UHGV virus genome: UHGV-1519562
DNA from: a virus
DNA length: 64,000 nucleotides
Reading direction: 5' to 3' (one strand)
Positions 15,165-52,729 of this stretch are shown here, one piece after another (within the stretch, counting starts at the first letter, position 1; each line of letters begins with the position of its first letter). A model generated the notes under the pieces. That model searched no databases. It was not told the origin of the DNA and saw nothing but the letters and a program-made list of their open reading frames with translations. The position numbers were made by a program, and so were the translations under genes.

Positions 15165-15331
15165 AAAACTTCATCTCTTTCCTTTTGTTTAACATACTTG
15201 TTATAAACGAATGTCTTCGTTTTACAAGGCAACTTTCCGAATCAGTATACCACAAAGTCTGCTCAAAATCAATAGTCAAAATAGCTAAATTTAGAGGGAG
15301 AATTGGGATCCCGAATTGTGCAGTATGCCTA

Positions 15332-15583: not shown

Positions 15584-15612
15584 TTGACAAGAAGCTCAGT
15601 CTGTGGTATAAT
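15584..15612 (+). promoter_or_regulatory. sigma-70-type promoter (TTGACA N17 TATAAT)
   Basis: TTGACA 15584-15589, TGG-TATAAT 15607-15612. Confidence 0.6.
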
Positions 15613-16008: not shown

Positions 16009-16149
16009 AAAAGGAAAGTTTTGCGGCCTTCCTTTTTCTTTTATTTGTATTGTGTAAGTTTTTATTCTTAATTTGTGCATTTTTACCTATTGACATCTTC
16101 CCAAAATTATGTTATTATATAATCAAGATAAAGAAAGGGGAAACAAAAG

Positions 16150-16752: not shown

Positions 16753-16860
16753 CTATATGCTTATATAGTGAAACTTCTAGGCTTCTAGCGAAAAAAAAAT
16801 AAATAAAAATTTTTTTGTTTAATTTACCTATTGACACCAAAGAAAAAGTATGGTATAATA

Positions 16861-16935
16861 ATTGCGGCGGCGCGCACACGACCATGGCTTTCCAATGCGC
16901 GCCGAAATTCTGTCAATACGCAAATTGCACAAAAA
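16861..16935 (+). other. GC-rich conserved element (family copy 1), transcribed leader
   Basis: GCGGCGGCGCGC...GCGCGCCGAAATT...TGTCAAT...TTGCACAAAAATTT starts right after the -10 of the promoter at 16835-16860; related copies at 19706, 21781, 23741, 25961, 63421. Confidence 0.5.
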
Positions 16936-17092
16936 TTTAGAGGAAAGTTTGGTGATTTTGCCCAGAAGTATTCATCCCGAAATGGTATTTGTTTATAAAA
17001 AGTATAGCGGCAAAACATTATCAAAATTGATTATTGAATTTCTTAAAAAATTTTGTTATAATAATTACAGAAAACAAAAGGAGGTCAAAAGT

Positions 17093-17254
17093 ATGGCTGA
17101 ATACCGTGACTGGCTGGTAGTTTTCCCCAATGGTGGGCAGATACATTTTGATAACAAGGGTATCGCAATGCAGAACGCAACCCGCAAGAAAGGCTTTGTC
17201 TATGAGTGTCATCTGGAAGAGAATGGGAATGAAACTCTCATTCATATCTTTTGA
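17093..17254 (+). CDS. hypothetical protein
   Basis: ATG 17093 after AAGGAGG; the track ORF 16862-17254 upstream part overlaps the GC element and is probably not coding. Confidence 0.5.
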   Translation: MAEYRDWLVVFPNGGQIHFDNKGIAMQNATRKKGFVYECHLEENGNETLIHIF

Positions 17255-17269
17255 TAGGAGGTATTGCGT

Positions 17270-17449
17270 ATGAAGCAGACTTATTCTATCTATCATGCAG
17301 GCGATGAAGAAATTATCGGGCCTTTTGATTCCTTTTCATTGGCAGAGGATTTCTTTCATAGGTTAGCTCAGTATGCTACTACAATGTATTACTTGGTAGA
17401 TGATTCTACTGGTGAAATTCTTCTTGATATTGAAGAAATTAAGGCTTGA
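17270..17449 (+). CDS. hypothetical protein
   Basis: ATG 17270 after TAGGAGG. Confidence 0.5.
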   Translation: MKQTYSIYHAGDEEIIGPFDSFSLAEDFFHRLAQYATTMYYLVDDSTGEILLDIEEIKA

Positions 17450-17473
17450 CATTTGGGCCTTACCGTGGTATAA
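17445..17473 (+). promoter_or_regulatory. sigma-70-type promoter (TTGACA N17 TATAAT)
   Basis: TTGACA 17445-17450, TGG-TATAAT 17468-17473. Confidence 0.6.
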
Positions 17474-17507
17474 TTACCATAGAAACAAAGGAAAGAGGTT
17501 GATACTT

Positions 17508-17963
17508 ATGACTGACAAAATGTTGGCTTTTGATATGGACGGCACTATTGCTGACCTGTATGGGGTTAATGGTTGGCTGTCTAAGCTGCGGAAGGAAGAT
17601 GCAAGCCCTTACCTGGAAGCTAAACCCATGTGGGATGTGGATAAGCTCAACGAGCTTATCAATAAACTAAAGCAGGCTGGTTGGGAGATTGCAATCATCA
17701 CTTGGCTTTCTAAAGAAAGCAGCCCTGAGTATGCAAAGACTGTGCGAGAAGCTAAAAAGGCTTGGCTCTTGAAATGGGGTTTCCCCTATGACCACTTTCA
17801 TGGTCTAAAGTATGGAGCCACTAAAGCGGATGCTGTTCGTAGAAAAGCATCTAAGGCAATTCTTATTGATGATAATAAGAAAGTTCGTGACAGTTGGCAT
17901 TTAGGAGAAACTGTTAATCCTGAAACTTGTAACATCATTGATTTTTTGGCTTCCCTGCTTTAA
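17508..17963 (+). CDS. HAD-superfamily phosphatase / nucleotidase-like
   Basis: FDMDGT motif I (DxDGT) near the N-terminus; ATG 17508 after GAAAGAGG. Confidence 0.6.
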   Translation: MTDKMLAFDMDGTIADLYGVNGWLSKLRKEDASPYLEAKPMWDVDKLNELINKLKQAGWEIAIITWLSKESSPEYAKTVREAKKAWLLKWGFPYDHFHGLKYGATKADAVRRKASKAILIDDNKKVRDSWHLGETVNPETCNIIDFLASLL

Positions 17964-17983
17964 GCAGGGAGTCAAAAAAGTTC

Positions 17984-18012
17984 TTGACAAATGAGAAAAA
18001 ATCTGGTATAAT
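17984..18012 (+). promoter_or_regulatory. sigma-70-type promoter (TTGACA N17 TATAAT)
   Basis: TTGACA 17984-17989, TGG-TATAAT 18007-18012, conserved leader ACAGAAATTAAGAAAGAGG. Confidence 0.6.
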
Positions 18013-18045
18013 GAGTACAGAAATTAAGAAAGAGGTAGATGCAAC

Positions 18046-18741
18046 ATGAGTATTGACAAGCGCAGACATTACGTTCTGCTTCTGGACACTGAGACAGCAA
18101 ACACCATCACTGACCAAAAAGGCCGATTAGACATGACCTCAGTTCTTGTCTATGATTGCGGGTGGTGTGTTATGGACACAAGAGGAAATATCTATAAGGA
18201 ACAATCCTTTGTTAATCGAGATATTTTCTTTGATGAAAGTGAGCTTATGAAATCCGCCTACTACGCGGAAAAGATTCCCCAGTATCTGGAAGATATTCGA
18301 CAGGGCATCCGACAAGTAGCTAACACTTACCAGATTCGACAGACTATGCTTGCAGACATGGCAGAATATGGTATTACAGAAGTAGTTGCCCACAATGCAA
18401 GATTCGACCTGAACGCATTGAATTTACTTCAACGCTGGACTACCAAAAGTAAATACCGCTATTGGTTCCCCTATGGTACCGATTTTTGGGATACTCTCAA
18501 AATGGCAAGAGATGTTATTCTAAAGATGCCTACCTATAAAAGGTTCTGTGAACAACACGGTTTTTTAACCAAAACTGGTAAACTCTCAGCAACAGCAGAA
18601 AATCTGTATAGATTCATCACCAAAGACCCTACTTTTCAGGAAGAACATAAAGGTCTTGACGATGTGCGGATTGAGCGGGAGATTATGATTTACTGCTATC
18701 GGCAAAAGAAGAAAATGCGGAAAAAACTTTTTGAAAATTAA
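18046..18741 (+). CDS. DEDDh 3'-5' exonuclease (DnaQ-like)
   Basis: Exo I LLLDTETA, Exo II VAHNARFDLN, Exo III HKGLDDV. Confidence 0.7.
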   Translation: MSIDKRRHYVLLLDTETANTITDQKGRLDMTSVLVYDCGWCVMDTRGNIYKEQSFVNRDIFFDESELMKSAYYAEKIPQYLEDIRQGIRQVANTYQIRQTMLADMAEYGITEVVAHNARFDLNALNLLQRWTTKSKYRYWFPYGTDFWDTLKMARDVILKMPTYKRFCEQHGFLTKTGKLSATAENLYRFITKDPTFQEEHKGLDDVRIEREIMIYCYRQKKKMRKKLFEN

Positions 18742-18862
18742 AAAACCGCTTGACAAAACAAAAGGAAAATGATATAATATAAGAGAAGTGAGGGAAAGAA
18801 AACCCTCTCCACTTCCTTAACAATTAGGGTAGCGACCTACCGCACAGAAAGGAATTGATATT

Positions 18863-19219
18863 ATGACTAACGAGAAGAAGATTACTAACAAGGGCGCCCT
18901 TCAGTATGTTCTGGACAACTGCGAGATTCCTGCCGACGTTCGTGCCAAGATTGAGATTCTGCTCCATCAGCAAGAGAACAAGAGCCGTGGTAGTGGTAAG
19001 CCTACTGCAACTCAGACTGAGAACGCACGTCTGATTGAAGTGATTGCCGACACTCTGCCCAAGGGCGAGGCTTTCACCATCTCCGACATTACCAAGACCA
19101 TTCCTGAGCTGAACGGCTTTACCCCTCAGAAGGTTGGCCCCATGCTCAAGAAGCTGGTTGAAACTGGCCGAGCCACCCGTGACACTAACAAGGGCAAGGC
19201 ATATTATACTATGGTGTGA
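18863..19219 (+). CDS. hypothetical protein, paralog of 22200-22616
   Basis: 118 aa; shares ...TENxxxxxxIAxxL...IPELxxxTPQ(K/R)(V/I)xPM.K.LV..G.A..DT.KG.A.. with the ORF at 22200; GC-richer codon usage. Confidence 0.6.
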   Translation: MTNEKKITNKGALQYVLDNCEIPADVRAKIEILLHQQENKSRGSGKPTATQTENARLIEVIADTLPKGEAFTISDITKTIPELNGFTPQKVGPMLKKLVETGRATRDTNKGKAYYTMV

Positions 19220-19278
19220 TAATTGAATAAAGAGGGGCATTAAGCCCCTCTTTATTTTCTCAAAAAGGATGGTGTTTA

Positions 19279-19641
19279 ATGATAGATGAAGCTAGGGTTA
19301 AACATCTTCAAAAGGTGTTAGACCTTGATAGAAAACAAGCTTTAGCGGTTATTGCCGATGATGAAGCAATAGATAAAGGTGCAGACCTTTTCCCACTTAC
19401 TGATGAACAAAAGAAAGTAGAAAAGAAAATGCGGTTATCCGGCAAAGAGAAAGGCAAGTACACTATGAATGCTCCCCGACAGCGCAAGGTTGACAATGAC
19501 AAACATCGCTTGATTGAGATTATTGCGGAATCTCTTGAACAGCTTGAAATTGAAACTACCATCAATAACCCAGAGCGAGAAATTGAGATAGTTTTTAATG
19601 AAAGACGTTTCAAAATTACATTAAGCGCTCCTAGAAAATAA
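19279..19641 (+). CDS. hypothetical protein, paralog of 22647-23030
   Basis: 120 aa; similar to the second gene of the 22.2-23.0 kb cassette (LTDEQKKV..K.. ; NPER.I...). Confidence 0.55.
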   Translation: MIDEARVKHLQKVLDLDRKQALAVIADDEAIDKGADLFPLTDEQKKVEKKMRLSGKEKGKYTMNAPRQRKVDNDKHRLIEIIAESLEQLEIETTINNPEREIEIVFNERRFKITLSAPRK

Positions 19642-19644
19642 TAA

Positions 19645-19684
19645 CAAAACCGGCTTATTTTTTATAAGCCGGTTTTGTTTTTTG
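19645..19684 (+). terminator. intrinsic terminator
   Basis: AAAACCGGCTTAT...ATAAGCCGGTTTT hairpin followed by a T-run. Confidence 0.7.
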
Positions 19685-19705
19685 TCTAATACTTCTTAAT
19701 GACAA

Positions 19706-19800
19706 ATGTTTGGCGGCCCGCGCATGGTCAAGCGCTGCCGCATTTCAATTATACCAGGTAATCCGACTTTTGTCAATGGGCAAACCGCACAATTATTTAA
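19706..19800 (+). other. GC-rich conserved element (family copy 2)
   Basis: TTTGGCGGCCCGCG...GCGCTGCCGCATTTCAATTATACC...TTTTGTCAAT...CCGCACAA; near-paralog of 21781-21880. Confidence 0.5.
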
Positions 19801-19894
19801 CCTTTTGTTTTCCCAAAATTGGTGATTCTACCTATTGATTTTTTTATTAAAATTTTATATAATATAATTGTTCCAAGGGAAAGGAGAAACAAAA

Positions 19895-20089
19895 ATGAAG
19901 ATTAATTACAAATCTTTCAGCGTGGAAGTTTTTGGTGAGAACATTTGGGGCCAAACCTATCTGAACAGAGTGGGCTTTGATTCTGAGGAAGAAGCCGATA
20001 AGTTTATTGAGTCTCTGGAAGAGGAAGAAGGAGTTTATTCGGCAATTAAAATTGTAAATACAAGTTATAATTTCAGAAAAAACCCTTGA
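19895..20089 (+). CDS. hypothetical protein
   Basis: ATG 19895 after AAAGGAG. Confidence 0.5.
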   Translation: MKINYKSFSVEVFGENIWGQTYLNRVGFDSEEEADKFIESLEEEEGVYSAIKIVNTSYNFRKNP

Positions 20090-20146
20090 CAAACAAACCA
20101 AGACGTGTTATAATAAATACAGAAATTAAGAAAGAGGTTGACAATT

Positions 20147-20257
20147 ATGAATGAAAATAAGACTACTCCTTGGTATATCTATCAGCCGGGCAAATGGAGC
20201 TACTTCTTATTTCTAGTTCCCTTGATTCTTCTCATTCTTATCTTTATAAGTACCTAA
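20147..20257 (+). CDS. small membrane peptide (36 aa)
   Basis: promoter TTGACA...TATAAT at 20086-20114, AAGAAAGAGG RBS, hydrophobic C-terminal half; below the ORF-track size cutoff. Confidence 0.4.
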   Translation: MNENKTTPWYIYQPGKWSYFLFLVPLILLILIFIST

Positions 20258-20348
20258 AAGATACTTATAAAAATCTGGATTGTCTTCAAAAAGGCTTGAC
20301 AAACGTCAAGCCGAGTGGTATAATAATAACAGAAAGAGGTTGATATAA

Positions 20349-20492
20349 ATGATTTCTACTATTGCTCTGGCTTCCCTGGCTGCCATTATGATGGTGAAGG
20401 TGTTCGTTGCGGTTGAGCGTGAGGATTACCGCAAAATGTTTGTCAGCGGATTTGAGTTTGCTCTTCTGCTTCTGACTTTAGCTAATATTTAA
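20349..20492 (+). CDS. small membrane protein (47 aa)
   Basis: promoter at 20293-20321, AGAAAGAGG RBS, two hydrophobic segments. Confidence 0.4.
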   Translation: MISTIALASLAAIMMVKVFVAVEREDYRKMFVSGFEFALLLLTLANI

Positions 20493-20505
20493 GGAGGTAA
20501 ATATA

Positions 20506-20754
20506 ATGAGAATTTATTCCATTAAACATCTGTTCGACAAAGAAGTTGCTGGTTTTTATCGAGAAATGAAAGAAAGCGTTGAAACAAAAGAAGAAGTAGA
20601 AAATGCTGTTTATCTGGTAACGGGTATGCAGGTTATGGCAAGTATTATTGCCGAAGGAAGTGATGAAGAGGTTCTTGCCATTGAACATGAAACTTGGGAT
20701 TATTGGGTTCCAAAGTTTAAGAAACTTCTGGAAAATCTTCCTGAAAAGGCTTGA
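20506..20754 (+). CDS. hypothetical protein
   Basis: 82-aa ORF, AAGGAGG RBS. Confidence 0.55.
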   Translation: MRIYSIKHLFDKEVAGFYREMKESVETKEEVENAVYLVTGMQVMASIIAEGSDEEVLAIEHETWDYWVPKFKKLLENLPEKA

Positions 20755-20810
20755 CATACGTCAAGTTCTATGATATAATAAAGCCATAATAAAGAAAGGA
20801 AGTCGATACT

Positions 20811-21011
20811 ATGACTAAAGAGGAATTCTTAGACACTTTGCAGGAGGTCGGCTATGAATGGAGCAGAACGCTCAATGAGCACAAGTATGACTACTCGGAT
20901 TTCGAGTGGAAGATGCTTGGTTGGTTAGCTGGTGAATTGATTGACCATTTCGACCAAGCAATTGATTCAATTCGTGATGAACTTCAGGAGGAGGAGGAAG
21001 AGGAAGAATGA
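20811..21011 (+). CDS. small acidic protein
   Basis: 66 aa, poly-Glu C-terminus, own promoter at 20749-20777. Confidence 0.5.
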   Translation: MTKEEFLDTLQEVGYEWSRTLNEHKYDYSDFEWKMLGWLAGELIDHFDQAIDSIRDELQEEEEEEE

Positions 21012-21256
21012 GAATGATAGAAAAGATTGAGAGATTCTTTCTTCTTGATGAAGAAGAAAGAACAATTCTCAAGAAAGCTGGAAGCATTTTGTATGACATG
21101 GGAGAAGCTATTGATAGCTCTGGAAGAGTTTCCTTATTCTATGCAAAATTTACTGAGCCGATTGAAAAAATCCGAAACTACGATGAAGGAAACTTTTATG
21201 ACCTTTCAGATTTATTGACTGTTCTTTCTAAAAAAGAAAGAATTGATATTGAATAA
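21008..21256 (+). CDS. hypothetical protein
   Basis: 82-aa ORF overlapping previous stop. Confidence 0.5.
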   Translation: MRMIEKIERFFLLDEEERTILKKAGSILYDMGEAIDSSGRVSLFYAKFTEPIEKIRNYDEGNFYDLSDLLTVLSKKERIDIE

Positions 21257-21271
21257 AGAAAGGATAGATAC

Positions 21272-21430
21272 ATGGAAAAGTATTGTTTTGTAGTTATGAC
21301 TACTGACGAAGGTATTGATGCTCCAGAGATGGTTTATCTTAATAAAGAAGCGGCTATAAAAGCGGCTGAGGCTCTTCAAAACGAAAGAGAAGAAGATTGT
21401 TGGGTAGAAAAAGTACAGTTTATTAAATGA
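21272..21430 (+). CDS. small hypothetical protein (52 aa)
   Basis: ATG 21272 after AAAGGA; ends just before the terminator at 21438. Confidence 0.4.
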   Translation: MEKYCFVVMTTDEGIDAPEMVYLNKEAAIKAAEALQNEREEDCWVEKVQFIK

Positions 21431-21437
21431 TATTAAA

Positions 21438-21466
21438 AATAAGGGCCTTTGGCCCTTATTTTTTAC
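21438..21466 (+). terminator. intrinsic terminator
   Basis: AATAAGGGCC TTT GGCCCTTATT hairpin followed by a T-run. Confidence 0.7.
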
Positions 21467-21520
21467 TTGACAGATTTTTCTTTCTATGTTATAATAACAA
21501 TAGAAAAGGAGTGAAGCAAA

Positions 21521-21724
21521 ATGACAGATTTTGCAAGAGCTGAAATTCTTCTTAAAGCTTTACAGGAAGCAGGAAGATATATGCGGAAATATTTACCCGC
21601 AGAAATGCCTCTGGGTGAAGATGCCGATATTACAAGATACTGTTTGATAAATGGTAATCAAGACCCAGAAGGCTCTAAGTTTGTAGAATACTTCATTCTT
21701 AAAGCATTTGACAGTTACAAGTAA
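21521..21724 (+). CDS. hypothetical protein
   Basis: 67-aa ORF with AAAAGGAG RBS, followed by terminator hairpin GGGCTAAAAGCCC. Confidence 0.55.
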   Translation: MTDFARAEILLKALQEAGRYMRKYLPAEMPLGEDADITRYCLINGNQDPEGSKFVEYFILKAFDSYK

Positions 21725-21780
21725 GGGCTAAAAGCCCTTACTTTTTTATTTTTATATTTGTTATAAACAAAAGTCAAGTG

Positions 21781-21880
21781 ATAGCAAAGTTTGGCGGCGC
21801 GTTGATGGCTGACATGCGCCGCAATTTAATTATACCCCAAGCCACGCCTTTTGTCAAGAGTTAAACTGCACAAAATCTAT
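21781..21880 (+). other. GC-rich conserved element (family copy 3)
   Basis: TTTGGCGGCGCG...GCGCCGCAATTTAATTATACC...TTTTGTCAAG...CTGCACAA; preceded by conserved TTGTTATAAACAAAAGT block shared with copy 4. Confidence 0.5.
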
Positions 21881-22199
21881 TTGAGGAAAATCCCGCTTTT
21901 TGTATAATTTGCCTATTGCAATTTGGGTGAAATCTGATATAATAAATAATGTCAGGAGGGAGTAGCCCAAGAAATCCTAGGGCGGCCGACCTGTGAGAAA
22001 GTATAGGAAGTAAACGAAATACATCAAGTGGTAAGTCTTATATCATGTGGTAATTGTTATTGCCCAACATGCTCTGGAAGCCGTAAATCTTGTGAAAAGT
22101 TTGCGAAACCTCTTGACAAACCCCAAGAAACGTGCTATAATAAGCATGTAATCAAGAGAAGGACAAACTCTTAAAAACCAGAAAGCGAGATAGGTGTTT

Positions 22200-22616
22200 A
22201 TGGAAAATACTAACAAGAGAATTACTAAGCGTGAGCGTTTCCAGTCTCTGATTGAGCTGGTGGAACTGTGCGAAGGCCGTGAAGACGAAGGCTTTGACTT
22301 TGAGGGTCTGACCGATTTCCTCTCCAACGAGATTCGCCTGCTGGAAGCTAAGAAGGGTTCCAATTCCCGCAAGCAGACTGTTCGCCAGACTGAGAATGAG
22401 CATTTTAAGGCTCTGATTGCTGAGCAGTTGACCGAAGAGGGCATGACCATTGCAATGCTCCGCAAGGCCATTCCTGAACTGGAAGATTTAACTCCCCAGC
22501 GTATTGCCCCTATGTGCAAGGCTCTTGTTTCTGAGGGCATTGCTTACAAGGATACCCACAAAGGTATTGCCCACTTTTACAAGGCGCAGGCCGTGGTAGA
22601 AGAGGAAGAGGGCTAA
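22200..22616 (+). CDS. hypothetical protein, paralog of 18863-19219
   Basis: ATG 22200; shared motifs with 18863 ORF; GC-richer codon usage. Confidence 0.6.
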   Translation: MENTNKRITKRERFQSLIELVELCEGREDEGFDFEGLTDFLSNEIRLLEAKKGSNSRKQTVRQTENEHFKALIAEQLTEEGMTIAMLRKAIPELEDLTPQRIAPMCKALVSEGIAYKDTHKGIAHFYKAQAVVEEEEG

Positions 22617-22646
22617 GGCCCTCTTCCCTAGAGGGGAGGTATATTT

Positions 22647-23030
22647 TTGGACAAAGCAAAAGAAGCAATCGCAAGAATCCAAGCCGGCATCAAGTGCAGT
22701 TATGAAAAAGCAGTAGAAATCTATAAGGCAGATTGCGAGGTTGATAAAGGCATCCCGCACGAATGGGATTTGACCGAGGAACAGCAAAAGGTAGCAAAGA
22801 AATACACCATTACCGGACAACACACCAAAAAGCATGACCGCAAGACCCCTATTAAAAGAGAAAGGAAGGAAAACCCCACTAAGGCAAATTTGATTGCGGA
22901 ACTTGCAGGTTTTCTTGAATCTTTGGGGATTTGTGACGTAAAAATTGCAAATCCTGAGCGACAGATTGCTTTTTCTGTTGATAATAACGCCTTTGAGCTG
23001 ACTTTAGTTCAGAAAAGGGCCAAAAAGTAA
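22647..23030 (+). CDS. hypothetical protein, paralog of 19279-19641
   Basis: TTG start after GAGGGGAGG; shared LTEEQQKV..K.. and NPER.I motifs. Confidence 0.5.
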   Translation: MDKAKEAIARIQAGIKCSYEKAVEIYKADCEVDKGIPHEWDLTEEQQKVAKKYTITGQHTKKHDRKTPIKRERKENPTKANLIAELAGFLESLGICDVKIANPERQIAFSVDNNAFELTLVQKRAKK

Positions 23031-23087
23031 AGTTTTTAGCCCTTTTCACTTAAAAAAGAGCTAATTTTGACGAAAAAGGTGATGTAA

Positions 23088-23432
23088 ATGCAACAAAAGA
23101 AAGAGTATTTGTATGTAGGCCACTATTTTGATATAGAGGGTAACTACATTCTTAAAATAGGTACTACTAATGATTTAGCCAGGAGACAGCAAGAGCATAC
23201 CAGAAATTATAAGCATTCACCTAAGTTTACTATGCCGAAATCCGCAAAGTTTGTCTATGATTGGTATCTGCCTTTGTCTAAATATTCGACTTTGCGGTAT
23301 GAGGATAAGAATCGTGCGGCATGGCAGGAATCTTCTATCGGTGAATTTGTCCGCAATGACAGATTTTGCTGTAAGCAAAAGCCCAAGAAAGTAAAGGTTA
23401 CTATCCGCAAAACCTATGAGATCGAGCTATAA
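23088..23432 (+). CDS. GIY-YIG-like (T5orf172-type) domain protein
   Basis: LYVGHY...(11 aa)...ILKIGTTNDLARRQQEH resembles the GIY-YIG/T5orf172 signature. Confidence 0.55.
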   Translation: MQQKKEYLYVGHYFDIEGNYILKIGTTNDLARRQQEHTRNYKHSPKFTMPKSAKFVYDWYLPLSKYSTLRYEDKNRAAWQESSIGEFVRNDRFCCKQKPKKVKVTIRKTYEIEL

Positions 23433-23445
23433 GGAGGAAGAGAAC

Positions 23446-23667
23446 ATGATTGTTATTAAAAAGCAATGCGAGGTTCGCTTATCCCAAGAAGAAATTGATC
23501 GTCTTGAGCAAGCCTCTGACATTCTTAATCAAATTTGGGAGGTGATGTCTGCTAGTAGTTATATTGGCAAATACGAAACCATTGATACCGCAAAAGTGGG
23601 AGAAGCATCAGATATTTTGCAAAACTTAGCAGAGATCGGCGAAAATATCGTAATTGAAGATGCTTGA
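23446..23667 (+). CDS. hypothetical protein
   Basis: ATG 23446 after AAGGAGG. Confidence 0.5.
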   Translation: MIVIKKQCEVRLSQEEIDRLEQASDILNQIWEVMSASSYIGKYETIDTAKVGEASDILQNLAEIGENIVIEDA

Positions 23668-23740
23668 TTATTAAAGGATAGTGGTTATTAACCACTATCC
23701 TTTTTTATCCCTATACTTGTTATAAGCAAAAGTAAAGTAA

Positions 23741-23815
23741 TAACAAAACTCGGCGGGCCGCGCTTGGTGGATGCGGCCCGAATTCGCGTCAATATACATT
23801 TTCCACAATTTTTCT
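23741..23815 (+). other. GC-rich conserved element (family copy 4)
   Basis: CGGCGGGCCGCG...GCGGCCCGAATTCGCGTCAAT...CCACAATTT after a terminator hairpin; shares upstream block with copy 3. Confidence 0.5.
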
Positions 23816-23987
23816 GCTTTTGATTTGTACAATTTTACTTATTGACATTTTCCCAAAATTATGTTATTATATAATCACAAAAGGAAAGGAGATTTAAAAA
23901 TTTCAAAAAAAAAATAAAAAAAGGTCTTGACAAACCAGGGCAAAGATGCTATAATGAATACAGAAATTAAGGAAAGAGGTTGATAGT

Positions 23988-25714: not shown

Positions 25715-25915
25715 ATGTTGAAAACTGAATTTGCCAGAAAGCTGGACTCGACTGGTCGATTAGTTATTCCTTCTAAGCTAAGAGATTATCTAGGAATGGA
25801 AACCGGCCAGTTGTTTACTTTTTATGTTCAAAAAGAAGAAAATGGAGATGTGTATTTGTGTGTGAAGTGTCCTAGTAATAAAATAAAATTTACTTTTGGT
25901 GAAAATGCCGATTGA
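25715..25915 (+). CDS. AbrB/MazE/SpoVT-family DNA-binding protein (putative regulator)
   Basis: RKLDSTGRLVIPSKLRDYLGMETGQ matches the swapped-hairpin AbrB-N signature. Confidence 0.6.
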   Translation: MLKTEFARKLDSTGRLVIPSKLRDYLGMETGQLFTFYVQKEENGDVYLCVKCPSNKIKFTFGENAD

Positions 25916-25960
25916 CATAAGGCTGGTTTTATGGTATACTATATATAAGGAGTGGCGGGC

Positions 25961-26090
25961 TGTGGACAGTGGTCACAGCCCGAAATCCCCTTTCCACTAG
26001 CATATGGCGATTTTTCTAGACTTCTAGCGACCCTTCATATGGCCGGGGTTTTTCCCGAAAGTGGCTCACCCGCTCGGAAAAAATTTTTTT
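25961..26090 (+). ncRNA. candidate small structured RNA (GC-rich element family, long copy)
   Basis: starts right after promoter TTGACA(25904)...TATACT; GGGCTGTGG...CACAGCCCGAAAT stem, CTTCTAGCGA motif shared with other copies, ends in an A/T run; no convincing ORF. Confidence 0.4.
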
Positions 26091-26149
26091 TAATTTGTCA
26101 AGTCAAAGTCCGCATTTGACTTTTTAAAAATTTAAGGCATAAAAAAAAA

Positions 26150-28225: not shown

Positions 28226-28395
28226 GAGCACATCTCTATTTTTAATTATTTTATCTATATTTTATCTATATTTTAATTATTTTTAATAAAAAGCACATCT
28301 CTATTTTTAATTATTTTTAATTATTTTATCTCTATTTTTAATTATTTTAAGATATTTTAATTATTTTTAATAAAAAGCACATCTCTCTAATTCGT
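28226..28395. repeat. AT-rich tandem direct repeats (about 2.3 copies of a 65-85 bp unit)
   Basis: AGCACATCTCTATTTTTAATTATT recurs at about 28226, 28292, 28376; TTTTAATTATTTTTAATAAAA recurs at about 28271 and 28356. Confidence 0.6.
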
Positions 28396-28694
28396 AAACC
28401 CCTTCCTTTAATCTTCTTTATTTCCATTGAAAAAATAACTTTTAAGGTGATTTTAAATGAATAAAATAGTAATTTTCCCCACTAAGCCATTGCAAAAAAT
28501 CTTTCGATGAAGAAAAACGTTATATCACGAACCAACCGAGAGAATAAACATAAATACACCAATCCCATTCTACTAATGCAATTAATTTCCATTCTAAATA
28601 ATTAATTCTTAAAGACTTCTCAAAATGAGAAGTCTTTATTTTTTTAAAAAAATATTATATAATATATATAGAAATTAAGAAAGGGTTGAAAAAT

Positions 28695-36991: not shown

Positions 36992-37158
36992 GAAGATAAA
37001 GAGGAGAATTTTTTCTCCTCTTTTTTATTACCATAATTATAATAACATATTTTTTGCTAAAAATAAAGTTTGAAACTTTTAGCTTAGCTTAGGCCGGGGC
37101 GGAGACGTGCGAATAAAAATGGCTTTAACAAATTTTTAAAAGATAAAGGAGAATAACA

Positions 37159-42233: not shown

Positions 42234-42311
42234 GGCACTGTAGCCCAATTGGAAGCAGGCAGTAGACTTAAAATCTATTCAGTGTGGGTTCGAGTCCCAT
42301 CAGTGCTACCA
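42234..42311 (+). tRNA. tRNA, anticodon UAA, class I (short variable loop) - atypical for Leu
   Basis: acceptor GGCACTG/CAGTGCT, anticodon stem GTAGA/TCTAT, loop CTTAAAA, T-arm GTGGG/TTCGAGT/CCCAT, CCA encoded; D-arm irregular. Confidence 0.55.
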
Positions 42312-42458
42312 TCACAGATTGTTGTGCGATTTAACTGTGTTAAATAAATTAAAATCGCGTTGCACAGTTCTTCCTTTAAGGAGTAGTTATGTTATATAAC
42401 GAATGAACTAAAAAATTAATATTATGTTAAAATTGTATTAATTATTAAAAATTTTTGG

Positions 42459-42487
42459 TTGACTTTAATTAATAAATATGTTATAAT
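42459..42487 (+). promoter_or_regulatory. promoter for tRNA-Leu(UAG) (TTGACT N17 TG-TATAAT)
   Basis: TTGACT 42459-42464, TG 42479-42480, TATAAT 42482-42487. Confidence 0.55.
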
Positions 42488-42523
42488 ATTTATATAAGAT
42501 TAACCAAAGAAATGTTGGATTGA

Positions 42524-42605
42524 TGGAATGGTAGACATAGTAGCCTTAGAAGCTACCGCGTAAGCGTAAGAGTTCAAGTCTCTTATCCAACACCATTAGA
42601 CAGAC
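42524..42605 (+). tRNA. tRNA-Leu (anticodon UAG), class II
   Basis: acceptor GTTGGAT/ATCCAAC, anticodon stem GTAGC/GCTAC, loop CTTAGAA, long variable arm, T-arm AAGAG/TTCAAGT/CTCTT, CCA. Confidence 0.75.
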
Positions 42606-42720
42606 ACAGCAATCTTTATACAAGTAACGACATGCGGGTTCGATTCCTGTCTTTACGCATCTGTAAAGTAGCCTATTGGTAAGGTATTTATTTTGTTTAA
42701 AGCTGTCTAGTAAATCTCAA
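42606..42720 (+). ncRNA. tRNA-like element with permuted (Y-RNA/YrlA-like) topology
   Basis: order: stem strand AGACAG (42609-42614), T-arm GCGGG/TTCGATT/CCTGT (42644-42660), acceptor 3' strand CTTTACG, 4-nt loop, acceptor 5' strand TGTAAAG, UA, D-arm GCCT/ATTGGTA/AGGT, closing strand CTGTCT (42713-42718). Confidence 0.4.
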
Positions 42721-42852
42721 TTTGAAAAATAAAAAAAATTATGATATAATATTTATAGAAAGTTGAGGTTGATTTAATGTTTTACTGGGATTCCTTTGAT
42801 TGTGAAATTCAGTCTGATGAAATTGGTAGTATTACTAATCAGGAGAATGAAT

Positions 42853-43014
42853 ATGAAGAAACAGAAGAACAAGAATTTATGGGCGAAAAAGAGTGGCGAT
42901 GAACTTCAAGAGTATTTACAATTTCGCCGCAGAGGTAGTAAAGTAAAACCTAAAAAGGGCAAAGGTTCCTTTAAAAGAAAAAAAGAAATTTGGATCCATA
43001 GCGTAATTGGTTAG
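42853..43014 (+). CDS. small very basic protein (hypothetical); 3' end overlaps tRNA-Asn
   Basis: ATG 42853 after AGGAG; K/R-rich 53-aa product; overlap with the tRNA makes coding status uncertain. Confidence 0.3.
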   Translation: MKKQKNKNLWAKKSGDELQEYLQFRRRGSKVKPKKGKGSFKRKKEIWIHSVIG

Positions 43015-43058
43015 CGCAACGGACTGTTAATCCGTGGGTTGTTCGTTCAAGTCGAACT
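42982..43058 (+). tRNA. tRNA-Asn (anticodon GUU)
   Basis: acceptor GGATCCA/TGGATCC, D-arm GCGT/AATTGGTTA/GCGC, anticodon stem ACGGA/TCCGT, loop CTGTTAA, T-arm GTTCG/TTCAAGT/CGAAC, G, CCA. Confidence 0.85.
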
Positions 43059-43081
43059 GGATCCGCCATATATTTTAATTA

Positions 43082-43157
43082 GCTCCTATCGACAAGTTGG
43101 TTAAGTCATTAGCCCTTCAAGCTAGAGTCGCGGGATCGTAGCCCGCTAGGAGTACCA
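43082..43157 (+). tRNA. tRNA-like, anticodon UUC (Glu) with atypical T-loop and C33
   Basis: acceptor GCTCCTA/TAGGAGT, anticodon stem TTAGC/GCTAG, loop CCTTCAA, T-arm GCGGG/ATCGTAG/CCCGC, A, CCA. Confidence 0.45.
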
Positions 43158-43243
43158 TAATGAAAGACACATACAGCAATTTATTTAACATTATGAAAAA
43201 ATGGCAGAAAATTTTTATATAGGTGTCTTGTTTATATATTGCA

Positions 43244-43294
43244 GGCAGGTTAAAGCCCTGTGCGTCGCTGGTTCAAATCCAGCCTGTGATACCA
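43244..43294 (+). pseudogene. 3' two-thirds of a tRNA (anticodon arm, T-arm, acceptor 3' strand, CCA) without a cognate 5' part
   Basis: anticodon stem GCAGG/CCTGT, T-arm GCTGG/TTCAAAT/CCAGC, CTGTGAT-A-CCA; no D-arm or complementary acceptor strand within 60 nt upstream. Confidence 0.4.
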
Positions 43295-43295
43295 T

Positions 43296-43368
43296 TGCGG
43301 AGTAGAGAAACGGTTATCTCGCAACCCTCATAAGGTTGAGAAAGGTGGTTCGACTCCACCCTCTCGCA
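43296..43368 (+). tRNA. tRNA-like, anticodon CAU (Met/Ile2-type), acceptor stem poorly paired
   Basis: D-arm GAGA/AACGGTTA/TCTC, anticodon stem CAACC/GGTTG, loop CTCATAA, T-arm GGTGG/TTCGACT/CCACC; acceptor strands mostly non-complementary. Confidence 0.4.
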
Positions 43369-43490
43369 GAGACATAATCAACCACCTCCACGCGGTATGT
43401 CTTGGGTAAAGCGAACGGTTGAATGATTTTGGGTACATTTGGATAATTTAGTAGCCAAAAAAACTCCATAATATAATGGAGGGATGTATA

Positions 43491-43952
43491 ATGAGTTATA
43501 TTTATAGAATTATTAATAATATAAACGATAAGGTTTATATTGGAAAAACTGCTTTTGATATTTCAAAACGATTCAAAGAGCATTGTAATGATGCTTTTAA
43601 GAAAACAGAAGAAAAAAGACCATTATATGCGACAATGCGTAAATATGGGATAGAGCATTTTACAATAGAACAAATTGAAGAGTGCTCTGACGCTGCGGCC
43701 GCAGACAGAGAAGCCTATTGGATTAGTATGTATTCTGCTTATGAAAAAGGATATAATGCGACTCTTGGTGGCGATGGTAAATTTTTATATGACCACAAAG
43801 CAATTGCTTTGCGACTTCAAGAACATCCATATTCTCAAGATGTAGCAAAGAAGTTTGGATGTTGTGTTGATACAGTAAGAAATATTGCTAATCAATATGG
43901 TATTTCATTATTAGTCAATAATGGCCATAAAAAAAACTATTTCTGCTTATAG
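43491..43952 (+). CDS. GIY-YIG homing endonuclease (catalytic domain plus first DNA-binding module)
   Basis: YIYRIINNINDKVYIGKT...RFKEH...YN.TLGG GIY-YIG signature; ATG 43491 after GGAGGG. Confidence 0.8.
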   Translation: MSYIYRIINNINDKVYIGKTAFDISKRFKEHCNDAFKKTEEKRPLYATMRKYGIEHFTIEQIEECSDAAAADREAYWISMYSAYEKGYNATLGGDGKFLYDHKAIALRLQEHPYSQDVAKKFGCCVDTVRNIANQYGISLLVNNGHKKNYFCL

Positions 43953-44124
43953 TAAAAGCGGTGTTTTAATAAAAACTTTTGAATCTACCTCAGAAGCAGC
44001 TCAGTGGTGTTATGATAATCAAAAATGTGCCACTTTGCACTCTGGTGTTAGAAGCCATATAGCACAATGTGCTAATGGGATTCGTAAATCTGCATATAGT
44101 TATATATGGAAATATGAAAATTAA
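43921..44124 (+). CDS. C-terminal DNA-binding module of the GIY-YIG endonuclease, in a different frame
   Basis: ...IAQCANGIRKSAYSYIWKYEN resembles the C-terminal module of Seg/I-TevI-like endonucleases; frame changes at an A8 run around 43926-43933. Confidence 0.55.
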   Translation: MAIKKTISAYSKSGVLIKTFESTSEAAQWCYDNQKCATLHSGVRSHIAQCANGIRKSAYSYIWKYEN

Positions 44125-44157
44125 AAATATAGACTCATACAGCAAAAATTCTTTAAT

Positions 44158-44230
44158 TCTAAAATAGTCAAAAGGTTAAGACATCACTCTTGAAAAAGTG
44201 AAAATATGGGTTCGATTCCCATTTCTAGGT
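44158..44230 (+). tRNA. tRNA-like with 8-nt anticodon loop CTTGAAAA
   Basis: acceptor TCTAAAA/TTCTAGG (one A-C mismatch), D-arm GTC/AAAAGGTTAA/GAC, anticodon stem TCACT/AGTGA, T-arm ATGGG/TTCGATT/CCCAT; flanked by TAGACTC (44121) / GAGTCTA (44237). Confidence 0.4.
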
Positions 44231-44446
44231 TTAAAAGAGTCTAGTTAAAAATTAAATATAGAAAGGAGAGTTGCTTTATGGATTTGGATGATATGATTTT
44301 TTCTGATGAAGTAATTATTATTAGTGATAGATAATTATTTCTAATTTATATGGAAATGTACTCAATGTTGGCAAAGAGGACGATTTGCTAAATCGTTAGG
44401 TCTATGAGAATAGGCGAGTGGGGTCGGCACCCACCGTTTCCGCCAA

Positions 44447-44517
44447 GAGAATGTGGTGTAATCTGGTAACACGCTAACTTTGGGAGCTAGAGTCGCAGTT
44501 CAAATCTGACATTTTCT
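44447..44517 (+). tRNA. degenerate tRNA-like (anticodon UGG-like), weak T-stem
   Basis: acceptor GAGAATG/CATTTTC, D-arm GTGT/AATCTGGTA/ACAC, loop TTTGGGA; T-stem only 3 bp. Confidence 0.3.
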
Positions 44518-44760
44518 ACCATTTAGACACATACAGCAATTTTATAATACTGATATTATAATTTGTGGCTCGCTGTGGCCCTATTAACAGCTCCATTTAA
44601 TGAAAAAGTATGTCAATGATTTATATTATCTTTTGCGAAAATTTCTTTAATATAATGAGACTTACAAGAAATTTTTTGTGTCTAGTTTTTCTTATTTTAT
44701 CCTTTCTTTCTTCTTTATAAGATGCTTTCAGCAATAATTATTACAAATATATTTTATTAG

Positions 44761-44856
44761 GTTTATTAAAATAGTATATATTATAGCAAATATATTTCTA
44801 TAAAGTTTATTAAAATACTATATAGTAAATATATTTCTATAAGGTTTATTAATAGC
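44761..44856. repeat. AT-rich tandem repeat (about 2.5 copies of an about 40-bp unit) upstream of tRNA-Gln
   Basis: GTTTATTAAAATA(G/C)TATATA..AG.AAATATATTTCTATAA repeated from 44761 and 44805, partial copy from 44844. Confidence 0.6.
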
Positions 44857-44866
44857 ATCTTGATAT

Positions 44867-44942
44867 AGCGGCATAGTCAAGTGGTTAAGACATACGGCTT
44901 TGACCCGTATATCCGTTGGTTCAAATCCAACTGCCGCTGCCA
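44867..44942 (+). tRNA. tRNA-Gln (anticodon UUG)
   Basis: acceptor AGCGGCA/TGCCGCT, anticodon stem TACGG/CCGTA, loop CTTTGAC, T-arm GTTGG/TTCAAAT/CCAAC, G, CCA. Confidence 0.8.
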
Positions 44943-45024: not shown

Positions 45025-45177
45025 TGCAGAAAACAGGCCGGCGCGGGCACGGGCAAATTAAAATGGAGTTTAGTAATTTTTTTCTTGGTCAAAGATATTT
45101 TAAGAATTTACTTAAATTTTAAAAAAAATAGAAGGGATAAATTTAAACTAAACTTTTAAAAGAAAGGAGTAATTTAA

Positions 45178-49408: not shown

Positions 49409-49472
49409 ATTGGAATTTTTTAAAAATTTATATTATAATATATATAGAAAATTAAAAAAGGAGATAATAAAT

Positions 49473-52166: not shown

Positions 52167-52252
52167 GTGGGCGTGATGAAACAGGAAAACATATCGCACT
52201 TAAAATGCGCTGCTAATCTAGCTTGTGGGTTCGAGTCCCATCGCCCACACCA
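52167..52252 (+). tRNA. tRNA-Leu (anticodon UAA), class II
   Basis: acceptor GTGGGCG/CGCCCAC, loop CTTAAAA, variable arm hairpin GCTA/ATC/TAGC, T-arm GTGGG/TTCGAGT/CCCAT, A, CCA; D-arm atypical. Confidence 0.6.
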
Positions 52253-52317
52253 TCTTTAAAACTGATACTCTTTACTATTAGTTTTGAAGATAACAATGAA
52301 CTTGAGTTTACTAATAT

Positions 52318-52394
52318 GCATCTGTAACTCAACTGGATAGAGTAACTGCCTTCTAAGCAGTAAGCCAGGGGTTCGAGTCCCTTCAGGCGTACCA
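52318..52394 (+). tRNA. tRNA-Arg (anticodon UCU)
   Basis: D-arm ACTC/AACTGGATA/GAGT, anticodon stem ACTGC/GCAGT, loop CTTCTAA, T-arm AGGGG/TTCGAGT/CCCTT, acceptor CAGGCGT-A-CCA (one A-C mismatch). Confidence 0.75.
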
Positions 52395-52579
52395 AGCAGA
52401 ATTATAATAGATAACAAAAGGAAATAGCTGATGTGAAAGGCATCTTGTCTTGCTGACATGACAATAAACTTTGAACGGACGTATAATGCGTATCGTGCCT
52501 GCGGGTGTAGAGTCAGAAAAGTAGGGGAATAATCGAGGAGCAGCTATAGGTGAGGCCCCACCTCCACCTTCCTTAATAT

Positions 52580-52668: not shown

Positions 52669-52729
52669 CGGTATCAAGATAGTTACCTTCACGTGGTGAT
52701 ACTGTTTTTACTAAAACTATCAACTATTT

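Follow-up and report, generated by a model that had tools for sequence, protein, structure and literature searches.

The window analysed here is a stretch of 64,000 nucleotides from the virus genome UHGV-1519562, whose source is best read as a ~137-kb phage of gut Clostridia. It carries six GC-rich intergenic islands on the plus strand, as described in the original prediction, all starting with (T/C)GGCGG and all with identical polarity relative to the genes (Table 1). Copies 1–5 fold into near-pure G-C hairpins of 8–10 bp (-16 to -20 kcal/mol), whereas the sixth hairpin is weak (-10 kcal/mol, z about 0) and its membership of the family is uncertain. Taken singly, the hairpins fold little better than dinucleotide shuffles (z of -0.9 to -3.6), because CG-rich sequence folds regardless. 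Single-sequence z-scores, which are weak for CG-rich 40-mers, were thus left out as evidence, and the structural evidence was taken from copy-to-copy comparison. The association of the islands with terminators and promoters is upheld, as is the placement of copy 1 inside a transcribed leader, with the promoter at 16831..16859 adjoining its hairpin. Copies 2 and 3 have a leftward promoter, copies 1 and 5 a rightward promoter adjoining the hairpin, and copies 4 and 6 neither; the last two are predicted relics that have lost both promoters. The hairpin of copy 5 heads a predicted GC-rich untranslated transcript of ~170 nt, ending at a terminator-like hairpin near 26100–26125, and this copy alone (25950–26125) looks like a self-contained sRNA gene. 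Stop-codon recoding behind the short ORFs at 14–26 kb was considered and rejected: dropping TGA or TAG stops adds little, and the genes of this region are truly small.

Table 1. Coordinates of the islands, their predicted promoters and neighbouring signals in the window.
Feature	Coordinates	Strand	Details
Copy 1 rightward promoter	16831..16859	+	TTGACA-17-TATAAT with TG, 12/12; adjoins hairpin
Copy 1 hairpin	16868..16904	+	CGGCGCGCA ... TGCGCGCCG, then GAAATT; -17.6 kcal/mol; model matches on both strands
Copy 1 leftward-promoter relic	16911..16932	-	-35 TTGACA and upstream TTGTGC kept, -10 deleted
Bidirectional terminator, left of copy 2	19643..19679	both	ends preceding operon
Copy 2 hairpin	19713..19741		-16.8 kcal/mol (+ strand), -18.0 (- strand); model E = 1e-9
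Copy 2 leftward sigma-A-type promoter, complete	19748..19792	-	12/12 with TG; predicted start near 19741-19742
Copy 2 promoter parts		-	-10 19753..19748; -35 19776..19771; TTGTGC upstream element 19792..19787
Next-operon promoter after copy 2	19835..19863	+	TTGATT-17-TATAAT, divergent from copy-2 promoter
Copy 3 hairpin	21794..21822		model 75.8 bits, but copy 3 in model seed
Copy 3 leftward promoter, complete	21829..21873	-	12/12
Copy 3 promoter parts		-	-10 21834..21829; -35 21857..21852; upstream element 21873..21868
Next-operon promoter after copy 3	21916..21943	+	TTGCAA-16-TATAAT
Copy 4 hairpin	23754..23780		-20.3 kcal/mol; intact promoter on neither side
Copy 4 leftward-promoter relic	23787..23808	-	-35 TTGACG and upstream element, without -10
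Next-operon promoter after copy 4	23842..23870	+	TTGACA-17-TATTAT, TTGTACAATTTTACTTA upstream
Copy 5 rightward promoter	25912..25940	+	TTGACA-17-TATACT
Copy 5 hairpin	25956..25982	+	z -3.6
Copy 6	63434..63451	+	short degenerate hairpin and CCGAATTTT, after terminator 63389-63419

Comparison of the copies suggests that each island belongs to a composite cassette between two operons. Read in the direction of the genes, this cassette would comprise a terminator closing the preceding rightward operon; an 8–10-bp near-pure G-C hairpin of fixed polarity, 5'-(T)GG-CGG...CCG-AAATT-3'; on the opposite strand, TTGTGCAA-N8-TATTGACA, a 17-bp spacer ending in TRTG, TATAAT and then GGAAATTT; and, ~65–75 bp beyond, the weaker rightward promoter of the next operon. 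The predicted opposite-strand promoter is a complete, essentially perfect match to the Gram-positive sigma-A consensus. It points back at the preceding operon, which places the predicted RNA start 0–2 nt before the hairpin. The only two perfect (12/12) minus-strand sigma-70-type promoters in 13.5–27.5 kb lie inside copies 2 and 3, and candidate promoters with every sigma-A feature (TTGACA, 17-bp spacer, TRTG at -16, TATAAT) are found at minus 19776..19748 and 21857..21829 and at plus 16831–16859. The motifs TGTCAA(T/G) and GCACAA, which had been taken for conserved parts of an RNA, are present in copies 1–4 only and are the reverse complement of the -35 and upstream element of this sigma-A promoter; AATTATACC, an insertion common to copies 2 and 3, is its -10. 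Since the motifs of copies 2 and 3 form a minus-strand promoter, the predicted RNA comes from the strand opposite to the one assumed. Forward copies of the same motif serve as the phage's own gene promoters (e.g. 16068–16118 and 23825–23870), and rightward gene promoters also bear a polypurine AATGTCAGGAGGGA leader.

The promoter is highly constrained among related phages. Across 42 diverse copies, GCACAA and both hexamers (-10 and -35) are invariant, and the spacer varies in sequence but keeps its length. The distance from the -10 to the stem is 6–9 nt on one side (most often 8) and 3–5 nt on the other, where a second consensus promoter adjoins the hairpin in ~30% of copies to give convergent pairs. 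Among 121 copies, the leftward -10 is kept in 98, an adjoining rightward promoter is present in 36 and the two are convergent in 21, frequencies that are biased because the pattern used to collect the copies demanded the promoter motif. Most hairpin promoters appear to drive no gene: a Shine-Dalgarno sequence with an ORF is missing within 200 nt of 83/101, compared with 17/39 hairpin-less promoters (Fisher p = 1.6e-5). A leftward gene that the published annotation of phage phAss-1 places behind the inverted promoter was rejected, as this CDS on the minus strand is the antisense shadow of a homologue, on the plus strand, of window ORF 18046–18741. A canonical minus-strand terminator lies within 130 nt of only 17/97 leftward promoters (83% without), which argues that the leftward RNA is not a neatly bounded sRNA. 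The terminator survey gave no support for the hairpin as terminator of the leftward RNA, nor for the upstream terminators being systematically bidirectional.

The hairpin itself is conserved in structure rather than in sequence. A covariance model, seeded with copies from other phages and window copy 3, recovers copies 2, 1 and 4 with E-values of 1e-9 to 4e-5 (copy 1 aligns with a 24-nt deletion) and copy 3, itself a seed member, at 1e-14. Copy 5 is detected through its promoter side only (E = 0.005), and copy 6 is missed by this search. In 141 distinct copies, 93.0% of stem cells pair, compared with 64.7% after shuffling, and double-sided changes occupy 320 stem cells against 103 expected. 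The true register scores 0.63, and registers slid as controls score 0.06 or less; a hand-built alignment set is likewise rich in compensatory changes. The promoter-anchored transcribed 48 nt have a mean folding z of -2.06 (n = 145, p = 1e-31). Thus the hairpin covaries and its pairing appears to be selected, at the RNA or the DNA level, which bears out the earlier view that the islands are not neutral and answers the concern that compensatory changes might be lacking. In a plain MAFFT alignment the two arms fell out of register, so that RNAalifold did not recover the hairpin; detection needed fixed-geometry alignments and the covariance model. Departures from pairing are equally rare for G-U-type (13) and A-C-type (10) cells, so that a wobble-asymmetry test for the functional strand gave no signal. 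Even within one genome, each copy has its own stem and loop sequence. The loops (7–13 nt, mean 9.8 nt) are free apart from a slight over-representation of CACG (13 vs 5).

The islands at 37092–37122 and 45036–45066, proposed as possible relatives, are similar to one another, and neither has a hairpin (z +0.2 and -1.0) or the promoter motif; they thus form a separate two-member family. The block TTGTTATAA(A/G)CAAAAGT does occur at 21758 and 23717 as reported, with a further copy at 15198 (2 mismatches). It is absent from all compared viral loci except the near-identical relative L001, and is thus local to this phage.

On our best reading, the cassette sits in the early (host-takeover-like) region of this phage and of many relatives. 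The compared viral loci hold 132 unique instances, and the covariance model gives 144 matches at E ≤ 1e-6 in 53 sources. Genomes carry 5–12 copies of unrelated sequence, and the architecture persists in >50 large viral contigs and between phages with proteins only 63–68% identical. The cassette is also present in phAss-1. Near and distant DNA searches of deposited phage genomes gave in one case nothing, in another short matches only, to phAss-1 and one unannotated faecal contig, and in a third phAss-1, another unannotated faecal contig and, in unrelated phages, matches at chance level. Bacterial genomes gave at least 120 matches; among the matches listed nearly all are chance, and one is a true copy, from a Clostridia metagenome bin (a 68-kb contig).

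The elements also coincide with recombination. L001, whose flanks are 96% identical, has 2.8 kb of unrelated sequence in place of window 19785–21815, a swap of a ~2-kb gene cassette whose two breakpoints fall in copies 2 and 3, within their leftward-promoter part. Across related loci, where events are not independent, homology endpoints are ~threefold enriched at the elements, and 74% of breakpoints lie >100 nt from any element. Deletion derivatives without the -10 have their ends in AAATTT direct repeats.

We favour, at a probability of about one half, the explanation that the islands are the stem-loop part of composite promoter/stem-loop boundary cassettes between early operons, with proposed roles as the source of a hairpin-capped RNA and as recombination linkers. 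Host RNA polymerase would initiate at the gene-less promoters to make a non-coding RNA with its 5' end held in the G-C hairpin. A hairpin in this geometry is known to shield RNA from decay that depends on the 5' end. Polymerase moving leftward, and the RNA that it makes, would meet the end of the preceding operon head-on and antisense, and may thereby punctuate or insulate early transcription units; at the same time, the conserved 60–130 bp of the cassette could let phages exchange early gene cassettes by homologous crossover within it. Promoter activity, start sites and the stability of the RNA are here predicted from the sequence. The consensus of the orphan promoter could be kept partly by concerted evolution with the gene promoters, without being needed. 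Two window copies (4 and 6) keep the hairpin without any promoter, which counts against the explanation.

The functionally nearest known system is probably the PeSLs (promoter-early stem-loops) of T4-type phages (Arbiol et al. 2010, PMC2839356; Comeau et al. 2014, PMC4122927), although the promoter here is inverted and orphan. Both are multicopy intergenic units that join a G/C-rich stem-loop to a near-perfect sigma-70-type promoter and are clustered in a variable early region where they flank small genes of unknown function, and in both, internal crossovers exchange the flanked gene cassettes among close relatives, as in the L001 swap. Terminator activity and mini-circles have been demonstrated for PeSLs (PMC2839356, PMC4122927), whereas the present cassette is known from sequence alone. 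The phages that carry it are an unrelated lineage infecting Gram-positive hosts (Clostridia). Its hairpin is distinct from the real terminator and lies downstream of the -10 at the predicted start, while the PeSL stem-loop is upstream of or within the promoter. Convergent promoter pairs are a further difference, and the best-conserved promoter here is inverted and drives no gene. The PeSL arrangement of a promoter serving the adjacent gene, with the stem-loop as terminator, does not apply, as 82% of hairpin promoters are gene-less, the hairpin has no U-tract and a separate terminator lies before it.

Two other groups of elements resemble parts of the cassette. Stem-loops at the 5' terminus stabilise the ompA 5' UTR in E. 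coli and the aprE and ermC leaders in B. subtilis, and the SP82 polypurine is another 5' stabiliser. The cassette similarly has a stable hairpin a few nt from the predicted 5' end (the stem 6–9 nt past the -10 would suit, if transcription starts ~7 nt past the -10), and the leader of the rightward gene promoters recalls the SP82 polypurine. However, the known stabilisers head mRNAs, and most cassette hairpins head gene-less transcripts. Lambda OOP and P22 sar are short cis-antisense RNAs, single sequence-specific regulators with defined terminators. As is predicted for the cassette, a constitutive promoter faces the gene upstream and yields a structured non-coding RNA overlapping the 3' end of that gene, but the cassette occurs in many unrelated copies per genome, usually without a terminator. 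Other counterparts were rejected: nut (boxA/boxB) or put RNA, as there is a single stem with loops variable in length and sequence; a CRISPR repeat mimic (RNA anti-CRISPR), on comparison of the copies themselves, whose stem sequences differ within one genome; and the phage K small RNA snc002, whose architecture is not similar.

The original prediction raised small RNAs as a possibility, and a trans-acting, free-standing sRNA gene, with the hairpin as the body of a regulatory or decoy RNA on host or phage targets, would account for the strong dedicated promoters without a downstream ORF and for the hairpin at the 5' end. Copy 2 reads into a bidirectional terminator to give an RNA of ~110 nt, copy 5 is a promoter-to-terminator unit, and 3' trimming to the G-C hairpin would yield a stable ~40-nt RNA. 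We nevertheless consider this unlikely. The copy-specific stems and loops leave no common seed or target-pairing sequence, most copies lack a transcribed-strand terminator, and the position is rigidly bound to operon boundaries. No Rfam family matches the elements: at the gathering score tRNAs alone pass in the window, and at E ≤ 5 the region 16.7–26.3 kb has sub-threshold matches alone, mostly over terminators. The elements are better described as halves of an inter-operon cassette, copy 5 being an exception in appearance. Equally unlikely, in our estimate, is that the gene-less hairpin promoters are a purpose-built takeover device, acting either as head-on polymerase traps or roadblocks, which would insulate early units and sequester host polymerase, or as a source of 5'-triphosphate G-C hairpin RNA decoys; such decoys would be abundant hairpin RNAs acting, independently of sequence, against host RNases or RNA-sensing defences.

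Less probable again is a back-up attenuator or 3'-end protective hairpin for rightward read-through, resembling the PeSL stem-loop or REP, with an incidental inverted promoter. The hairpin lies 6–23 nt past a canonical terminator in many copies, its polarity is the same in 6/6 window copies, and it outlasts the promoters in copies 4 and 6; in vivo, PeSL G/C stem-loops reduced the output of a lacZ reporter to about the same extent as the strong terminator rrnB T1 (PMC2839356). Like intrinsic terminators, the G+C-rich stem comes right after an operon. However, neither strand has a U-tract (plus AAAUUUCC, minus CCAAAC), the loops exceed those typical of terminators (3–8 nt), and a true terminator precedes most copies. 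A terminator scan did not report the hairpins, the 3' flanks being AAATTTCC (plus) and CCAAAC (minus). An attenuator also leaves unexplained the invariant, perfectly spaced promoter on the opposite strand and the tight 8-nt distance from -10 to stem. REP/BIME and Correia-type repeats are likewise multicopy G+C-rich palindromes after genes, and Correia elements bear promoters in their arms. Those repeats are found on chromosomes, scattered over many contexts, and some have terminal inverted repeats and target duplications, whereas the cassettes are restricted to one context, phage early regions.

A DNA-level device, which ranks below the attenuator in our estimate, would act either as a head-on polymerase roadblock or sink, through a very tight promoter and G+C-rich initial transcribed DNA, or by binding a regulator at the palindrome and the repeated CCGAAATT. 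The stem constraint is strand-symmetric with wobble pairs nearly absent, and the palindrome GAAATTTC is conserved at the predicted start site with a second CCGAAATT ~74 bp off. The orphan promoter is nearer consensus than the gene promoters, a comparison subject to ascertainment, and convergent starts are ~25 bp apart, so that both cannot be occupied at once and the promoters are mutually exclusive. On the other hand, arms of 8–10 bp with 7–13-nt spacers make poor cruciforms, the freely varying stem argues against sequence-specific recognition by a protein, a candidate binding protein is lacking and the support is read from sequence. Least probable is that the elements are mainly recombination scars or linkers, their inverted and partial promoter copies being by-products of frequent cassette shuffling, homogenised by gene conversion and without regulatory role: the cassette replacement with both breakpoints in elements, the enriched breakpoints, the AAATTT-bounded derivatives and the decayed copy 6 would fit, but not the hairpin covariation, the fixed distance from hairpin to -10 or an architecture kept among such divergent phages.

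For the large uncultured phages of gut Clostridia (the phAss-1 or "code 15" group), gene regulation has, to our knowledge, hardly been explored. The boundary cassette would give them a readable transcriptional grammar, consisting of an early promoter consensus with upstream TTGTGCAA, operon boundaries and a conserved orphan antisense promoter, and it removes at least one spurious antisense "gene" from a published annotation, that of phAss-1. As far as we know, mobile promoter/stem-loop cassettes have so far been described for T4-type phages of Gram-negative hosts; their role as engines of early-gene shuffling may thus extend to an unrelated lineage with another architecture. If the takeover device were true, it would be common to a large clade of uncultured gut Clostridia phages and would represent a class of phage regulatory element without described counterpart. 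The promoter-plus-hairpin unit is compact enough for direct reporter and in vitro transcription assays.

The GC-rich islands between the early operons belong to composite cassettes, which in complete form combine a G-C hairpin with a sigma-A-type promoter on the opposite strand. All six predicted islands lie on the plus strand and open with (T/C)GGCGG; five form hairpins (-16 to -20 kcal/mol) whose stems of 8-10 bp consist almost purely of G-C pairs, while the copy at 63434 is weak. The TGTCAA(T/G) and GCACAA blocks, which the original prediction took for conserved motifs of a possible small RNA or regulatory module, have a different identity. A search on both strands found the minus-strand reading of this two-block motif to be the sequence of the phage's ordinary plus-strand promoters (TTGTGCA-N8-TATTGACA-N17-TATAAT), so that the motif is a -35 hexamer with its upstream element, read as the reverse complement. 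The apparent insertion in copies 2 and 3, AATTATACC, is the reverse complement of an extended -10, TGGTATAATT. A scan of 13.5-27.5 kb identified thirteen 12/12 promoters, only two of which are on the minus strand; these belong to copies 2 and 3 and point leftward, opposite to all genes. The cassette promoter also carries the -16 TRTG motif of Gram-positive sigma-A promoters (TGTGGTATAAT). At the sequence level, the anatomy of the element is established, as is the identity of its promoter by consensus and conservation. If transcription starts ~7 nt past the -10, the predicted RNA would begin 0-2 nt before the hairpin. In copies 1 and 5, a consensus rightward promoter abuts the other side of the hairpin. 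Copy 1 retains the reverse-complement -35 and upstream element and has lost the -10, as has copy 4, which in addition has no promoter on the plus strand, and only a decayed remnant is left of copy 6.

The window is a portion of a large tailed phage, encoding a portal protein (phrog_2739), an RNA ligase, a Ro-like RNA-binding protein and 16 tRNA genes. The portal shares 39.6% identity with its counterpart in the uncultured human-gut phage phAss-1 and ~30% with those of Enterococcus Herelleviridae. An essentially identical phage is represented by a 137.7-kb IMG/VR contig (L001), and the ORF at 18046-18741 has 63-68% identical homologues in three further contigs. The G+C content per kb is 35-45% at 14-26 kb, compared to mostly 22-33% elsewhere in the window. 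This segment consists of small rightward genes in short operons, every one of which has a strong sigma-70-type promoter and a terminator to itself; it looks like an early, host-takeover-type region. Stop-codon recoding was ruled out there.

Related viral contigs (the fetched loci) contain 140 promoters of this class, 101 of them with the hairpin. No Shine-Dalgarno sequence with an ORF follows within 200 nt in 83 of these 101, compared to 17 of the 39 hairpin-less promoters (Fisher p = 1.6e-5), which establishes the former as mostly orphan promoters. An apparent leftward gene behind one phAss-1 copy was rejected as the antisense shadow of a real plus-strand gene. In phAss-1 (OQ749652; 3796-5279, minus strand in the locus), the hypothetical proteins WIC39739.1 and WIC39738.1 are annotated antisense to plus-strand ORFs; the latter opposes ORF 4338-5117, a clear homologue of the window ORF 18046-18741, and spans a promoter-hairpin-promoter cassette. 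Both annotations are probably mistaken. That the elements encode trans-acting sRNAs seems unlikely; an Rfam scan found no family matching the islands, and no strong loop motif was found across copies.

The hairpin itself was ruled out as a terminator, as a U-tract is absent on both strands and the loops are large. In 47 of 97 copies, a canonical terminator on the plus strand ends no more than 80 nt upstream. A canonical terminator serves the leftward RNA in only 17 of the 97, and this RNA would therefore mostly enter the preceding operon as antisense or be trimmed to the hairpin. A role for the hairpin as a back-up attenuator is slightly less probable than an sRNA function.

Single-sequence z-scores are modest because shuffled CG-rich sequence also folds well, and we therefore relied on comparisons between copies. 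When 29 copies are aligned by hand without gaps, 90.3% of cells pair (66.0% in shuffles), with double-sided changes at 9 of 10 pairs, and slid registers pair at 30-44%. A covariance model spanning hairpin and promoter found 144 copies at E <= 1e-6; in the resulting alignment, which is fitted to the model and so somewhat favours structure, 93.0% of cells pair (64.7% shuffled) and covariation scores 0.63 versus 0.16, slid registers giving <= 0.06. The compensatory changes proposed as a check on the stems are abundant in this alignment (320 double-change cells, with 103 expected). Anchoring on the promoter only provides an unbiased check: the 48 nt on the transcribed side fold at a mean z of -2.06 relative to dinucleotide-shuffled sequence (n = 145, p = 1e-31). 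Stem covariation establishes that pairing is under selection. Across the outer eight pairs, G-T-type departures (wobbles in the RNA of one strand) and A-C-type departures (wobbles in that of the other) are equally rare (13 and 10). With stems so close to purely Watson-Crick, the constraint acts symmetrically on the two strands. Such symmetry fits RNA hairpins made from both directions or a requirement at the DNA level, without telling which. A DNA-level trap or operator is marginally less likely again than an attenuator.

One swap bounded by the elements is established by comparing the window with L001. The flanks are ~96% identical, with homology ending at window position 19784 and restarting at 21816; the intervening 2.0 kb corresponds to an unrelated 2.8 kb in L001. 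On the left, the breakpoint falls within the upstream element of the leftward promoter in copy 2; on the right, it is at the AAATT/-10 junction of copy 3. Among related loci, where events are not independent, elements contain 9.9% of the homology endpoints, against 3.0% of random positions, and 26% of the endpoints lie within 100 nt of an element, against 8.6% of random positions; most breakpoints fall elsewhere. That the cassettes are purely recombination scars is the least likely alternative.

An exact pattern scan of IMG/VR gave 101 stretches, with true matches mostly on 80-200 kb contigs. The fetched loci hold 132 unique instances, of which 121 with a clean Watson-Crick stem were used for architecture counts (mean stem 8.9 bp, mean loop 9.8 nt). 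The leftward -10 is kept in 98 and an abutting rightward promoter in 36, with convergent promoters, seen from both strands, in 21. The spacing between stem and -10 takes two narrow ranges, ~8 nt (GGAAATTT) towards AAATT and 3-5 nt (GGG/GGC) towards GG. A typical cassette runs from the terminator through a T-run, TTTGG, the hairpin, CCGAAATTTCC, ATTATACCAC, the spacer, TTTTGTCAA, N9-10 and TTGCACAAA to TCCCGAAATT, ~17 nt further, after which comes the TTGTGCAA element belonging to the next rightward gene promoter. TCCC(G/A)AAATT recurs ~17 nt right of GCACAA in related loci, just upstream of that TTGTGCAA element or within the promoter spacer, and repeats the hairpin-flanking CCGAAATT ~74 bp away; it could be a protein site. 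The cassette also occurs in phAss-1, whose description paper does not contain the words promoter, terminator or hairpin. Among the matches listed in a bacterial-genome scan, one is a true copy, on a 68-kb contig from a Clostridia metagenome bin.

The shorter islands at 37085 and 45035, suggested as possible relatives, have no inverted repeat and no counterpart in related loci, and are outside the hairpin-cassette family. They match each other in a 31-nt G+C-rich motif, GGCCGGnGCGGnnACGnGC(G/A)AAT(A/T)AAAATGG, with zero chance matches in shuffled sequence; each lies 3' of a terminator and 5' of a gene without an obvious sigma-70 promoter, and may act as a promoter for another polymerase or factor. 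The copy-5 hairpin opens a ~170-nt G+C-rich untranslated stretch that follows a promoter and is closed by a terminator-like hairpin (GTCAAAGTCCGCATTTGAC plus T-run). The stretch is a candidate for a stand-alone small RNA gene; among the fetched loci only L001 has it, and its fold is unexceptional (z -1.8). Cassette-adjoining rightward gene promoters are followed, in many related loci also, by a conserved polypurine leader well upstream of the start codon, reminiscent of the Shine-Dalgarno-like 5' stabiliser of Bacillus phage SP82.

Features of the window by position
Feature	Position	Strand	Remark
Rightward promoters abutting hairpin	16831-16859 (copy 1), 25912-25940 (copy 5)	+	consensus
Leftward 12/12 promoters	19776..19748 (copy 2), 21857..21829 (copy 3)	-	promoter scan
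Ordinary promoters, examples	16068-16118, 23825-23870	+	
Third-type internal early promoters, cTTGACAAAC...TGnTATAATAAATACAGAAATTAAGGAAAGAGGT	15584-15612, 17984-18012, 20086-20114, 22113-22141, 23927-23955		without TTGTGCAA; common leader (families D6, D9, D10)
Second promoter class, (A)TTGAAAATTTAAAAAAATATATTATAATATATATAGAAA(G)TTAAGAAAGGA	28637-28673, 49413-49449, 61676-61712 (examples)		~18 very uniform copies in 27500-62000; conserved initial transcribed sequence; distinct from early promoters, which suggests a separately regulated, perhaps middle, class
31-nt motif	37092-37122, 45036-45066		
Candidate small RNA gene	25912-26125		
TCCC(G/A)AAATT	16998-17007, 16098-16107, 23850-23859		
Leader AATGTCA(G/A)GAGGGA	21944-21965		
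Exact repeat TTCTAG(G/A)CTTCTAGCGA	16775-16791, 26014-26030		adjoins copies 1 and 5; chance expectation none
Block TTGTTATAA(A/G)C(A/G)AA(A/T)GT	15198-15214, 21758-21774, 23717-23733		after three terminators; absent from fetched loci except L001; 23717 copy has 7-bp inverted repeat TTGTTAT + ATAACAA
A+T-rich imperfect tandem repeats	28227-28371		periods 10, 31, 65 nt; iteron-like; could be a replication origin
tRNA clusters	42234-44942, 52167-53479		16 genes in all
tRNA	44158-44230		odd 4-base anticodon call
Ro60-like RNA-binding protein (phrog_850, E = 6e-111) and RNA ligase (phrog_968)	53535-55058 and 59510-60787		beside tRNAs

Of the systems described, the nearest is the PeSL of T4-type phages, in which a strong sigma-70-type promoter and a G/C stem-loop form a repeated composite that sits in hyperplastic early regions and mediates modular shuffling (PMC2839356, PMC4122927). 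Both are mobile regulatory linkers. However, the cassette departs from PeSLs in a defining feature, having a conserved promoter that is inverted and drives no gene and a stem-loop distinct from the terminator, and thus it is a PeSL-like variant rather than a PeSL member. In the proposed mechanism, the host polymerase would use the cassette promoters, and the hairpin would cap the 5' end of the RNA and stabilize it, since stem-loops at the 5' terminus protect RNA from 5'-end-dependent decay in E. coli and B. subtilis. The early units of this phage may be punctuated by head-on or antisense transcription.
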